Positions 12,458 through 16,556 are shown, counted from the first letter of the stretch. The stretch is 41,062 nt of DNA from a virus (IMGVR_UViG_2939177367_000003:1-41062); one strand, 5' to 3'. Notes: generated by a model from the sequence alone, not told the origin. Program-made: numbers and translations.

Positions 12458-14293
12458 TTACCTGCCAAAGCGCGTATAGCCAACATCATGGCTGACATCA
12501 AAACCGCTGGATCGCGTTTCCATAACCCGCATACCCGGAGGCGAATTCACAAAAGAGACCTTGATCTCACCATCAACTTTTGGCGCAGAAGCTTTGTTAA
12601 TCATGAAGGGATTCGGGCCTGTGGCATCGGAGGCGTTGTTTGACTGAGCCAGATCTACCGCCGGATAAGGTGTGTATCCCCGCGCCGGTATTCCCGTCCC
12701 ATAAGCATCATAAGCACCCGCGCCCCACTGCGCAGAGTTAATGGCATCGACCGTGTCACCGGAACTGTCGGTAAACCACTCAATAATTGGCTTCAGCTTG
12801 TCCCACATATCCTGAAACCACTTAACAACCGGCCCCCAGTTATTGATCACCATCCCCAGCGGCGACCAGGCAAAAACTTTCTTAAGGAGTTCCCAGCCAG
12901 CCTCAAAATAAGGACCAATGGTTTCCCAGAGTTTCTTAAAATAAGGTCCGACAACATCCCAGTTAGTGATAATTAATCCCGCAGCCAGGGCTATCGCCGT
13001 CGCAATCATGCCAATCGGCGTCATCGACATGATCCTGCTGACAATACTGATGGCACCGCCAACGCCCATCAATCCCAGTTTCAGAATCGCAAGACCGGCA
13101 GCAAGCCCGACGACGCCGCGAATAACCCGGGGATTTTCATCCGCAAACTTCGTGAATTTCTCCCCCAACTCCCCCAGCCATTGCGTGATATTTTTAGCGT
13201 CACCAGAAAATGCACCGCCAATAGCCGCAAGGCCGTTAGTTGCGGTCCCTGTCATTGCCTCCCACAGGTTGGACAGCGTACCAAGCTGTGCCTGAACACG
13301 TTTATTCAGGCTGGCCTGTTTATTCATCTTCTGCTGGATCTGATCGTAACCATCCTTTCCTTTATCAATCAGAGCATTGACCACCTGAAGGGTTTCAGCA
13401 TCATCACCAAATATTGCCTTAAGTACACCAGTTCGTTTAACGTCGGTCAGTTTTCGCAGCTTTGCCAGTTGCCTGAACATGTTATCAAGACCGCCAAAAC
13501 TCCCTTTGCCGTCAGTAAAATCGAGCTGTACCCCGAGTTTCTGGCGGGCCATGACTTTATTGACGTCCCTGATTTTCTTAACGCTTAATCCGGACTGGAT
13601 AACTTTTCGCAGGGCGTTACCTGCCGACTCCCCGTTCATCCCCATCTGATCCATCATGACGCTGATGGGGGCAAGGCTCTGTGCAGCCTGAAGACCGTCC
13701 TTGTTCACCATCTTCAGAACAGAACTGGTTTTAGTGAAGAAGGACAACATGTTGGTATCGTCAACGCCCAGATAAAACGCCTTCTGGATAGTATCGAACA
13801 GCCCCATCATGTCTTCTGACGCCGTTCCGGTAGCATCCTGCATCTTTGCAGCAAACTCAGCAGCCGCTTCCGGTGTTTTTTTCAGTTGTACCGCAAGATA
13901 AGCTGTCGCTTTACCCACACCACCCAGAATGTTTTCTGCCGGGATCCCCTGACGCACCAGCATCTGCATCATGTTCTGGAAATCAGCCGTTGTACCGGGT
14001 AGCTGGTTACCCAGGCCAATAGCCAGTTTATTGATGTCCTGAAAGCTCTTTCCAACCTCGCCGTTCGCATCCATCATGGCGACTTTCAGCCCGGTGGCGG
14101 CGTTTTCCTGATCGGCATAAGATTTCAGGGAAAGCGTCAGACCCGCTGCCAGTCCGCCACCAAGCGCCAGCCCACCCTGTGACGCTTCTTCCGCCTGGCG
14201 TTTAAATCCCCGGATTTTCTTTTGCATTTTCGACAGCGCGGGAGAAAGCCTGTCGACACCGGTGATCAACGCCTTAAGCTCAAATTCAGCCAT
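12458..14293 (-). CDS. Tail tape measure protein
   Basis: 611 aa, Ala/Gly-rich with hydrophobic C-terminal region; located after tube and chaperone genes. Confidence 0.75.
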   Translation of the reverse strand: MAEFELKALITGVDRLSPALSKMQKKIRGFKRQAEEASQGGLALGGGLAAGLTLSLKSYADQENAATGLKVAMMDANGEVGKSFQDINKLAIGLGNQLPGTTADFQNMMQMLVRQGIPAENILGGVGKATAYLAVQLKKTPEAAAEFAAKMQDATGTASEDMMGLFDTIQKAFYLGVDDTNMLSFFTKTSSVLKMVNKDGLQAAQSLAPISVMMDQMGMNGESAGNALRKVIQSGLSVKKIRDVNKVMARQKLGVQLDFTDGKGSFGGLDNMFRQLAKLRKLTDVKRTGVLKAIFGDDAETLQVVNALIDKGKDGYDQIQQKMNKQASLNKRVQAQLGTLSNLWEAMTGTATNGLAAIGGAFSGDAKNITQWLGELGEKFTKFADENPRVIRGVVGLAAGLAILKLGLMGVGGAISIVSRIMSMTPIGMIATAIALAAGLIITNWDVVGPYFKKLWETIGPYFEAGWELLKKVFAWSPLGMVINNWGPVVKWFQDMWDKLKPIIEWFTDSSGDTVDAINSAQWGAGAYDAYGTGIPARGYTPYPAVDLAQSNNASDATGPNPFMINKASAPKVDGEIKVSFVNSPPGMRVMETRSSGFDVSHDVGYTRFGR

Positions 14294-14468
14294 GTGTGCG
14301 TTTCTCCTGCTCTATCCTGTTTGCCTGACTGACCAGTAAGGGAATTTCACTGATCGGCATATTCAGCAATTCGAAAGGATTAATGCGCCAGTAGCTGGCG
14401 CAGTCAAAGAAGCGATCAGTGAGGTATTCAGCCGTCAGGCCTGGAGGAAAAAACCAGCCACAAGCCAC
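14286..14468 (-). CDS. Tail assembly chaperone -1 frameshift extension (P2 E'-like)
   Basis: Overlaps the 3' end of the chaperone ORF in the -1 frame; slippery T_TTT_TTC at 14447-14453 (minus strand); translation DRFFDCASYWRINPFELLNMPISEIPLLVSQANRIEQE. Confidence 0.55.
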   Translation of the reverse strand: MACGWFFPPGLTAEYLTDRFFDCASYWRINPFELLNMPISEIPLLVSQANRIEQEKRTHG

Positions 14469-14704
14469 GCCGCTGCATTCAGGTCTGCCGGAGACATCTG
14501 GTCGACAGAGCTTTGCGGCACTTTCGCCAGCCGCACAATGTATTTCGACACCACATGCGCCAGAAGTCTGACGGACTCATCCTGATTCATCTGGTAGGGA
14601 TACCCAAGCTCGCGGACATCCTTCCCGGTGGGTTCATCAAACTCCAGTACGGAGAGTGTCTCGCCATGAGCGATAATCGGTTTCTTTAACTCAAGCTCTT
14701 TCAT
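14435..14704 (-). CDS. Tail assembly chaperone (Mu gp41 / P2 gpE-like)
   Basis: 89 aa between tube and tape measure genes; ends ...AGFFLQA across the slippery run. Confidence 0.6.
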   Translation of the reverse strand: MKELELKKPIIAHGETLSVLEFDEPTGKDVRELGYPYQMNQDESVRLLAHVVSKYIVRLAKVPQSSVDQMSPADLNAAAWLVAGFFLQA

Positions 14705-15060
14705 TACTGGTAATCCCCTTCTTCACCGTGGAACTCAAGATCAACCGTGCCTTCTTCGGCATTATGGTTCGCTTCGCCGTGCAGCCAGGCAGACGACAGT
14801 ACATAGACCTGACCGTTCGCCAGCTCGGCAGTGATGGTCATCTCATCAGACGAGGTGATTTTGCTCACCGGAAAATTCTTCGGCACCTTGAAGGTCCCTT
14901 TGACATAAGGCGCACGGTGAGTTTCCTTGCGGTCCACTGAACCGTCCAGGCCGATGATGTCATCATTGACCGTCCTGTTCATGGGCACCTCAATGCCGCC
15001 GGTCAGCGATAGCTGCTGACCGTCAATTTTGAAATAACAGGTTCCCCCGATACGGGCCAT
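14704..15060 (-). CDS. Tail tube protein (Mu gp40-like)
   Basis: 118 aa immediately downstream of sheath gene. Confidence 0.6.
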   Translation of the reverse strand: MARIGGTCYFKIDGQQLSLTGGIEVPMNRTVNDDIIGLDGSVDRKETHRAPYVKGTFKVPKNFPVSKITSSDEMTITAELANGQVYVLSSAWLHGEANHNAEEGTVDLEFHGEEGDYQ

Positions 15061-16556
15061 TATGCAGACTCCTCTGAATACTGAAGACGGAACTGGTTAA
15101 CCACGGCAAAAACACGCAACTGGTTAACATAGTCAGGCGGGAACAGCGTGTTCAGGCGGTTCGGATCGCTGGCATCACGCTCAACAACCAGGTACTGCTT
15201 AAACAGTTCGTAGTTTTCCACGATCCCCGCACGCTCAAGCTGACGGTAGGTTGCCAGCAGTTCCCCTTTGATTACCGCCGGGGTGACAATCGCCTGACCG
15301 GGACCAAAGCGGGTACCGTCGCTGGCAAGCTTGTGACGCCCGTACTTACTGGTAATGACGGATTTCAGTTTGCGCAGTACATACGCACTGGTATGCAGCG
15401 TCTCGCTGTCGAGGTAGCTGTTATCCGCAACCCCGTAAGCATTTTTCCTGTACGTGGTGACATCACGCTGAATGCGCAGCCCCCCGCTTTCGACATACGC
15501 CGTTGCCACGCCATGAGACAGCAGGGTCTGCTGCTCGGTCATCGTGAACCGTTTCCCCTTCGGCGCAGGCAGCATACCCACCAGCTCACCGGTCTGCGTG
15601 GGACGTGCCGGATCGTTGCGGATAAACACCGCTGCGCGGGCGGTACGGCTTGCCGCCAGCTCGTCGGCAGGCGTCTGGGTCTCTTTTTCGTACCCCGCCA
15701 GGGTGATGTGCTGCTGGTTAAACTGGTCACCTGCGTTCACCAGTTCTGACAGTGTGCCGGTCTTTGCCGTATACACATGACCATACAGCTGACGCGCATA
15801 GCTCCAGCGACCGCTGGTATCGTTCATCTCGGTCACCAGCGTGTTAACGGAGGCCGTGTCGTTGAACGGCAGGCCGATATAATCAAACGGCTCATCCGCC
15901 ATTGCAGCCACCGCGCCGGTGAGAACAGGAGAGCCCGTTCCGGCGGTCCCCGTCGCCACGGCAATCTGTACGCCCGCAGGCAGCACTTCGCCCCCACCAA
16001 AGCCGTAGTAATTGAGGCTGACAGGAATTTCATTCCCGCAAAGCCCCTTATGACGCGCGGTCAGTGTGACCACGCCTGCCGAAGATGAAGCCGTAAACGG
16101 CAGGGCCGGAACGGCATTGATGGCATCTTTGATACTGCTGGCAATCGTCGTGACGTTATCGCCGTTGGTCACCGGAGCCTGCACGCGGGTACGTCCCACA
16201 TAGACATTCACCGTGCCGGTTTCGGTTGCCTCCCCGGTCACCGTCAGCGTAACCGTTGCCGCCGCGCCTGTGGATTCAGGAACGGCAATCACATACAGCT
16301 CGCCAAACGGGTCGGTCTGGCGATAAGCCTCGACCATACGCGCCAGCTGACTTCCCGCACCACAAATCTGGCGTGCATAGTCTGCCGACGGCATCAGTAC
16401 CAGACTGTTGGCAACAATCTCTGCACCGTTATTGGCATGACCAATCAGCAGCGATGCTCCGCTGTCCTGTGCAGTATTCGCCGCCTGGTTATCCATTTCC
16501 GCATAAAACAGCGGAACCAGCGTATTCGACGGAATGGTGTTAAAGCTTATCGTCAT
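15060..16556 (-). CDS. Contractile tail sheath protein (Mu gp39-like)
   Basis: 498 aa; position upstream of tube gene. Confidence 0.7.
   Translation of the reverse strand: MTISFNTIPSNTLVPLFYAEMDNQAANTAQDSGASLLIGHANNGAEIVANSLVLMPSADYARQICGAGSQLARMVEAYRQTDPFGELYVIAVPESTGAAATVTLTVTGEATETGTVNVYVGRTRVQAPVTNGDNVTTIASSIKDAINAVPALPFTASSSAGVVTLTARHKGLCGNEIPVSLNYYGFGGGEVLPAGVQIAVATGTAGTGSPVLTGAVAAMADEPFDYIGLPFNDTASVNTLVTEMNDTSGRWSYARQLYGHVYTAKTGTLSELVNAGDQFNQQHITLAGYEKETQTPADELAASRTARAAVFIRNDPARPTQTGELVGMLPAPKGKRFTMTEQQTLLSHGVATAYVESGGLRIQRDVTTYRKNAYGVADNSYLDSETLHTSAYVLRKLKSVITSKYGRHKLASDGTRFGPGQAIVTPAVIKGELLATYRQLERAGIVENYELFKQYLVVERDASDPNRLNTLFPPDYVNQLRVFAVVNQFRLQYSEESA

Follow-up and report, generated by a model that had tools for sequence, protein, structure and literature searches.

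The gene that lies between the tail tube and tape measure genes of an SfV-like prophage ends a few codons after a run of six T, and a second reading frame stays open past its stop codon. The question that this locus raises is whether the gene encodes one tail assembly chaperone or, through a change of reading frame, two. The window, by which we mean the whole stretch of 41,062 nucleotides that we analyzed, is an SfV-like prophage with 99% identity to Shigella phage SfV, and also to SfI, SfII and several E. coli phages. The matching stretch is present in 1098 of 5426 complete E. coli genomes, which is about one fifth of them. Taking the locus together with its relatives, we consider it highly probable that the gene undergoes a programmed -1 ribosomal frameshift of the P2 E/E+E' type, which would yield chaperones of 89 and 139 aa. 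The ribosomal nature of the shift, its efficiency and the binding partners of both chaperone domains are what we infer from the sequence and from better known phages.

Two reading frames in the tail assembly chaperone gene

The features on which the analysis relies are the following, with positions counted from the first letter of the window:

15060..16556, minus strand: tail sheath gene, 498 aa (PF04984, PF17482, PF17481; SfV annotation 'similar to phage Mu GpL')
14704..15060, minus strand: tail tube gene, 118 aa (PF10618 Tail_tube, 2.4e-33; phrog_185; tail tube in SfV RefSeq)
14435..14704, minus strand: short (0-frame) tail assembly chaperone ORF, 89 aa (stop TGA at 14437..14435; PF10109)
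14447..14453, minus strand: slippery heptamer T_TTT_TTC (third base of the Gly84 codon, Phe85 and Phe86 codons)
14286..14447, minus strand: -1 frame extension, 53 codons and TGA (codons 14447..14289, stop 14288..14286)
complement(join(14447..14704, 14286..14447)), minus strand: predicted frameshift fusion CDS, 139 aa (86 + 53 residues)
14384..14402, minus strand: perfect 8-bp hairpin within the extension, 44 nt 3' of the heptamer
12458..14293, minus strand: tape measure protein gene, 611 aa (ATG at 14293..14291; PF10145, 9.9e-27; phrog_28 and phrog_17727, tape measure)

The order of the genes on the minus strand is sheath, tube, chaperone and tape measure. The sheath gene puts the chaperone locus within a contractile-tail module, and the chaperone gene sits between the tube and the tape measure genes. 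In the 89-aa product, Pfam recognizes PF10109 (Phage_TAC_7) with an E-value of 2.4e-15 and a score of 56.7 bits against a cut-off of 25, the match covering residues 4-86 and positions 2-78 of the 79 of the profile. This family, described in Pfam as 'Phage tail assembly chaperone proteins, E, or 41 or 14', is that of P2 gpE and Mu gp41. The same product matches phrog_166 ('tail protein') at 4e-23 and is named 'phage tail assembly protein' by PGAP. NCBIfam searches with the short product, the fusion and the extension returned no match for any of the three.

The chaperone ORF ends with GTG GCT GGT TTT TTC CTC CAG GCC TGA, which translates into ...VAGFFLQA*. The heptamer TTTTTTC is found at 14453..14447 on the minus strand, in codons 84-86 (GGT TTT TTC), three codons before the stop. 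Since it begins on the last base of the Gly84 codon, the heptamer is correctly phased as X_XXY_YYZ. The first-pass annotation, which had described an 89-aa ORF ending in ...AGFFLQA with T_TTT_TTC at 14447-14453 on the minus strand, is thus correct in both sequence and coordinates. Upon a -1 shift the base C14447 is read twice. No stop interrupts the -1 frame between a point well before the heptamer and the TGA at 14288..14286.

As a control within the window, we considered every in-phase X_XXY_YYZ heptamer in a crude set of its 52 putative genes (ORFs). Among the 38 such sites, the one in the chaperone gene keeps the -1 frame open by far the furthest beyond the 0-frame stop, for 149 nt. The runner-up reaches 47 nt and belongs to an ORF that is probably spurious.

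From C14447 onwards, the -1 extension encodes the 53 residues PPGLTAEYLTDRFFDCASYWRINPFELLNMPISEIPLLVSQANRIEQEKRTHG. Its stop and the ATG of the tape measure gene overlap by 8 nt (ATGGCTGA), so that the frame does run into the tape measure start, as had been proposed. The proposed length of the extension, 60 aa, has to be revised: the -1 extension is real, and it adds 53 aa to the chaperone, 60 aa being the count from an upstream GTG at 14468. The predicted fusion is therefore composed of 86 + 53 = 139 aa, with the junction peptide ...WLVAGFFPPGLTAEYLTDR.

The junctions between the other genes of the module are similarly tight. The stop of the tube gene overlaps the ATG of the chaperone gene (TAATG; 14702-14706, minus strand), and the stop and start codons of the sheath and tube genes overlap too (15058-15060). 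Together with the 8-nt overlap at the tape measure gene, these sheath-tube-chaperone overlaps suggest that translation may be coupled along the entire tail operon. No internal promoter-like or terminator-like site was found in the chaperone-extension region.

The extension matches phrog_32181, a family of 'unknown function', at 4e-40. The record of the Escherichia phage vB_EcoM-689R6 (ON470584.1, 9199-9381) lists the -1 ORF as a gene of its own, coding for a 'hypothetical protein' of 60 aa. The family phrog_32181 appears to be made up of frameshift extensions that were miscalled as genes.

The AlphaFold2 model of the fusion, predicted from the single sequence, was unusable (mean pLDDT of 46, pTM of 0.30), and a PDB profile search with the fusion alignment returned only matches at chance level, the best of which (E = 0.028) is an unrelated HNH nuclease. 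A few singleton proteins of 107-139 aa in the protein database (P0001-P0006) join chaperone and extension in one frame. We did not take them as evidence for a natural in-frame fusion: their indels occur at various positions and not in the T-run alone, and they were treated as assembly or sequencing errors, which is what they most likely are.

Purifying selection on the heptamer and on the -1 frame protein

A scan with one genome per species identified 21 loci, whose chaperones are 38-100% identical to that of the window. A tblastn search of the fusion against phage genomes added ST64B, phiP27, SfIV, Pantoea AH07, Burkholderia BgVeeders33 and others. After removal of duplicates and of one pseudogene, 23 non-redundant loci were retained, including the window (22 relatives, with 34-99% chaperone identity).

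Each of the 23 non-redundant loci has a run of six or seven T that begins on the third base of a codon, and the hosts of the conserved loci range from Shigella to Burkholderia and Derxia. Most relatives have six T, while seven are found in the ST64B/phiP27/SfIV group and in one locus from an uncultured proteobacterium (L018). The codon that precedes the run is mostly GGT, and AAT or CGT in the ST64B group. Conservation of the extension in related phages, which the first-pass annotation had left to be looked for, is found throughout: all relatives examined keep both the site and the extension. We also counted exactly six T in 80 out of 80 IMG/VR copies, all of which are 100% identical in the chaperone and hence provide a population check of the run only.

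To separate selection on the nucleotides from selection on the protein, we relied on synonymous sites. The test was done on 17 gap-free sequences and comprised the 25 codons with an invariant degenerate amino acid. Among the 13 four-fold codons, Gly84 alone is fixed (GGT in 17 out of 17 sequences), and the other 12 use three or four different third bases. Likewise, Phe85 (TTT) and Phe86 (TTC) are the only ones fixed among the 12 two-fold codons. The three codons GGT TTT TTC are therefore uniquely frozen at synonymous sites, which indicates selection on the nucleotides themselves and not on Gly-Phe-Phe.

The two frames past the heptamer can also be compared. The 0-frame tail varies among relatives, with lengths of 3, 8-10, 14 or 21 codons and unrelated sequences. 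The -1 peptide is conserved around the core FDCAxYWRINPxELL...QANRI, which is recognizable down to Derxia, where the chaperone is 38% identical. Substitutions at the first, second and third codon positions amount to 0.19/0.115/0.387 in the extension, read in the -1 frame, and to 0.174/0.104/0.513 in the chaperone body, read in the 0 frame. The -1 stop lies at most 14 nt from the tape measure start in 18 out of 18 loci checked, and in 13 of the 18 it overlaps that start through [A/G]TGGCT[G/A]A. These data show purifying selection on the nucleotides of the heptamer and on the protein encoded in the -1 frame.

Could the -1 ORF instead be an untranslated gap that stays open by chance, next to a T-run that merely codes for Phe-Phe? 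The chance of a 53-codon open frame is roughly estimated at 8% at this composition, and the stretch is an unannotated gap in the SfV RefSeq record, in SfI and SfII, and in PGAP E. coli genomes. However, the extension is conserved as a protein, with -1 codon periodicity, among relatives whose chaperones are 38-60% identical. The heptamer is moreover frozen at the nucleotide level and the frame always closes at the tape measure start, and we give almost no weight to a coincidence.

We regard it as extremely unlikely, too, that the extension belongs to a small gene of its own, with translation initiated at GTG 14468. A 60-aa ORF with this GTG start does exist (14468..14286); it is called as a gene in the vB_EcoM-689R6 record, and phrog_32181 was built from such calls. 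Yet the GTG is not conserved. The search for an independent downstream start, which the first-pass annotation had also suggested, returned no conserved start: in 11 of the 18 loci checked the GTG is replaced by CTG or has no start equivalent, and the -1 frame, from its last stop before the heptamer up to the heptamer itself, contains no ATG, GTG or TTG. The loci that do have a -1 'start' all have it at the same spot, as an NTG composed of the wobble base before Trp80 and of the TG of its TGG codon, so that its presence is accidental and depends on a synonymous site. The -1 frame of several relatives opens only 13-28 nt ahead of the heptamer. Furthermore, no Shine-Dalgarno-like sequence precedes GTG 14468, the internal Met codons of the extension are not conserved, and a separate gene leaves the freezing of GGT TTT TTC at synonymous sites unexplained.

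The arrangement of lambda G/GT and P2 E/E' that had been recognized in the first annotation is thus borne out by the position of the gene, the PF10109 match, the phased heptamer and its conservation, and an extension that lacks a conserved start.

Two groups of relatives deserve a separate description. Salmonella phage F1055, phiP27 and SfIV (L026, L027 and L028) carry T_TTT_TTT after AAT or CGT, with the T-run at 846-858. In the ST64B/phiP27/SfIV subgroup the 0-frame tail has 21 codons and the short product 107-109 aa, and the fusion still measures 138-140 aa. In Serratia symbiotica (L021, ~2501-2575), the chaperone homologue is ended by a premature stop after ...EPTGKDVR, a truncation that is consistent with a decaying prophage in the genome of a symbiont.

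Proposed mechanism of the shift and candidate stimulators

In the mechanism that we propose, most ribosomes would read the chaperone gene to its TGA and produce the 89-aa protein. On the sequence G GUU UUU UC, a minority of them, with tRNA-Phe in the P site (UUU) and in the A site (UUC), would slip back by one base, and both tRNAs would re-pair with UUU UUU in the -1 frame. The shifted ribosomes would go on with CCU CCA GGC..., adding 53 residues and ending at the TGA that overlaps the tape measure ATG. The outcome would be a fixed, low ratio of the 139-aa to the 89-aa product from a single start codon.

The possible functions of the two products can be derived from phage lambda, where binding to the tape measure protein is common to gpG and the G portion of gpGT, contact with the tube subunit is made by the T portion, and mature virions contain neither protein (PMC5009743). 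The short product here is the counterpart of P2 gpE and lambda gpG, and the extension that of P2 E' and the T domain of lambda. By analogy, the N-terminal domain present in both products would form a coat on the tape measure protein, and the C-terminal domain that is produced only by frameshifting would recruit the tail tube protein, with the tube polymerizing around the tape measure. As in lambda, neither chaperone product would be expected to remain in the virion. Given the absence of lambda gpG and gpGT from mature virions, mass spectrometry of virions is unlikely to detect a fusion of the SfV type.

In E. coli reporters, heptamers of the form H_HHU_UUY rank with those that promote -1 shifts most efficiently (PMC4066793). 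In the same system, UUUUUUC shifts at 0.12% alone and at 7.6% with the IS3 pseudoknot, as compared with 0.33% and 10.2% for UUUUUUU and 0.118% and 0.77% for UUUUUUG, which is the P2 motif (PMC4066793 supplement). These efficiencies indicate that both variants found in the family, T_TTT_TTC and T_TTT_TTT, are prone to shift. Since bare UUUUUUC shifts at around 0.12%, a useful level of fusion would need effects of the context, and the same holds true for UUUUUUG in P2.

The 139-aa protein could also arise without any change of frame by the ribosome, if RNA polymerase added one U within the U6 run and the resulting mRNA underwent standard translation. The site is indeed a homopolymer, mostly of six T and of seven in the ST64B/phiP27/SfIV group and L018. 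The product (G-F-F-P-P...) is identical in the two cases, and hence the sequence analysis cannot tell the two mechanisms apart. In addition, U7 runs are avoided in E. coli genes, possibly owing to transcriptional slippage (PMC4066793). In the present case, however, the run is short and is held at exactly six in all 80 copies. The documented bacterial cases of productive transcriptional slippage involve longer runs, of around 8-9 or more A/T. The run also occurs always in the X_XXY_YYZ phase, which is needed by the ribosomal mechanism but not by slippage of the polymerase, and the annotation of the nearly identical P2 site, as well as the literature that cites it, treats the shift there as translational (PMC3091744, PMC5009743). 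Overall, we consider transcriptional slippage very unlikely and favor the ribosomal frameshift.

A search for elements that may stimulate the ribosomal frameshift gave mostly negative results. The canonical stimulator, a hairpin or pseudoknot 5-9 nt downstream, is absent in the window, and no Shine-Dalgarno-like element at 6-17 nt upstream of the heptamer is conserved among the relatives. Consensus folding of the 110 nt past the heptamer in 17 relatives returned only a conserved stem of 4 bp, with no meaningful covariation. Rfam contained nothing relevant, the only match being a sub-threshold one to a CRISPR repeat on the opposite strand.

Stable hairpins that start 2-8 nt after the T-run were observed in three GC-rich relatives, namely the uncultured proteobacterium (L018, 2743-2770; z = -2.6), Derxia (L024, 2743-2790; z = -1.3) and Burkholderia phage BgVeeders33 (L029, 849-912; z = -1.9). 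These hairpins may be lineage-specific stimulators with no counterpart in the enterobacterial versions of the site.

Further downstream, the extension hosts the stem-loop UGCGCCAG-CUA-CUGGCGCA, a hairpin with a perfect 8-bp stem that spans codons C102-R107 (minus strand, 14402..14384). The four synonymous positions of the stem (in TGC, GCC, TAC and CGC) are invariant in 12 out of 12 close relatives. In the same close relatives there is variation at the wobble base of the loop (Ser104) and in all other invariant codons of the extension that are at least three-fold degenerate and lie outside the overlaps. Across the wider set no covariation was found for this hairpin, which is absent in several relatives. 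At the homologous coding position of P2, about 51 nt after the heptamer, there is a 10-bp stem with a 6-bp stem inside (z = -3.07).

The distal hairpin looks selected. We consider it rather unlikely that such a hairpin, 44-51 nt downstream, takes the place of the canonical adjacent stimulator in tuning the shift of the SfV-like clade, and maybe that of P2 too. If it did, it would be an unusual stimulator, dependent on long-range contacts or on the spacing between ribosomes, and would explain how useful amounts of fusion are made from weak bare heptamers (around 0.12%).

Comparison with P2, lambda and Mu, and implications for annotation

The first-pass annotation had proposed P2 and Mu for comparison. 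The choice proved right for P2, where E/E+E' is almost superimposable on the locus of the window, and less so for Mu gp41, which is not a like-for-like case as its extension is in the +1 frame and is reached through a -2 shift.

P2 E shares the PF10109 domain, and P2 E and the chaperone of the window give weak reciprocal PHROG cross-hits. E/E+E' is likewise preceded by the tube gene and followed by the tape measure gene, in the operon FI-FII-E-T-U-D. The slippery sites have the core GGT TTT TT in common, at codons 84-86 in the window and 83-85 in P2 (GTC GGT TTT TTG, codons 82-85). The sizes of the products, 89 and 139 aa in the window as compared with 91 and 142 aa in P2, are close to each other. 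Moreover, the end of P2 E' overlaps the start of T by 8 nt (ATGAGTAA), as do the extension and the tape measure gene here. P2 resembles the window also in having no obvious stimulatory structure adjacent to the heptamer (PMC3091744).

There are differences as well. The last base of the heptamer is C in the window, with UUC (Phe) in the A site, and G in P2, with UUG (Leu). Past the slip site, the 0-frame tail has three codons in the window and six in P2. The P2 chaperone domain is only remotely similar to that of the window, and in HMM searches the extensions match different PHROGs, phrog_32181 here and phrog_1756/6416 for P2. An hhalign comparison of the 14-member fusion alignment with P2 E+E' was collinear along the whole fusion, over 118 columns, and weak (E = 0.0024, probability of 12%). 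In this comparison the extensions are aligned as …IFHWPPSELYPMSLTEL… (window) and …SYWRINPFELLNMPISEI… (P2), with no statistical support.

The gpG/gpGT pair of lambda (slippery site G_GGA_AAG) follows the same logic, with two products made at a fixed ratio from one start, between the major tail gene and the tape measure gene. The T part of gpGT is much longer than the 53-aa extension. The heptamer and the tRNAs of lambda also differ, being Gly/Lys instead of Phe/Phe, and its tail is non-contractile, whereas the chaperone of the window belongs to a contractile-tail module. The lambda-type chaperone family has no Pfam match here, where PF10109 is the sole match.

According to the description of PF10109, Mu gp41 is in the same Pfam family as the chaperone of the window. 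Its flanking genes are also the same (sheath L, tube M, gp41 and tape measure gp42), and the Mu extension ends just before the tape measure start. However, the Mu extension is in the +1 frame and is reached via a -2 shift at a G-run (PMC5009743, PMC2628397), as opposed to the -1 shift at a T-run here, and Mu gp41 is 144 aa long as compared with 89 aa. When the profiles are aligned, the Mu fusion runs collinear with that of the window, at an E-value that is not significant (0.049). A -2 or +1 shift like that of Mu was ruled out in the window, since the +1 frame there is already closed 7 nt beyond the stop of the 0 frame.

In the Mu sequence itself (L031, 3553-4131), the long open frame after gp41 is the +1 frame, and GGGGG occurs near the end of gp41, which fits the published -2 shift. 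By eye, the Mu extension (…ILKSGPEWALSLPLSRFF…QQA…) is similar to those of SfV and P2, a resemblance for which the profile alignment is not significant. According to the annotation of sheath and baseplate, the remaining tail module of SfV is Mu-like and not P2-like. SfV therefore follows P2 instead of Mu at the slip site, despite its Mu-like sheath and baseplate genes.

We looked for the 139-aa fusion in existing records. It is encoded in none of those examined, which comprise the RefSeq and GenBank records of SfV, SfI, SfII, SfIV, phiP27, Pantoea AH07, Salmonella F1055, Burkholderia BgVeeders33 and PGAP E. coli genomes. These records have either a gap of around 140 nt before the tape measure gene or the -1 ORF as a separate 'hypothetical protein'. 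A literature search on SfV and frameshifting, with the SfV genome paper and Xu et al. 2004 outside its coverage, returned no description of the site.

Programmed -1 frameshifting at the site of the window is genuine, is of a type already known in detail, occurs in a phage family that is itself well known, and involves no new principle. The main use of the finding is the correction of the annotation across many records, including phrog_32181, for which 'frameshift extension of the tail assembly chaperone' would be a suitable new name. The finding also provides one more confirmation that the frameshift of the G/GT type is conserved in contractile-tailed phages, and indicates that a phage with a Mu-like tail module can use a -1 site of the P2 type instead of the -2 site of Mu.
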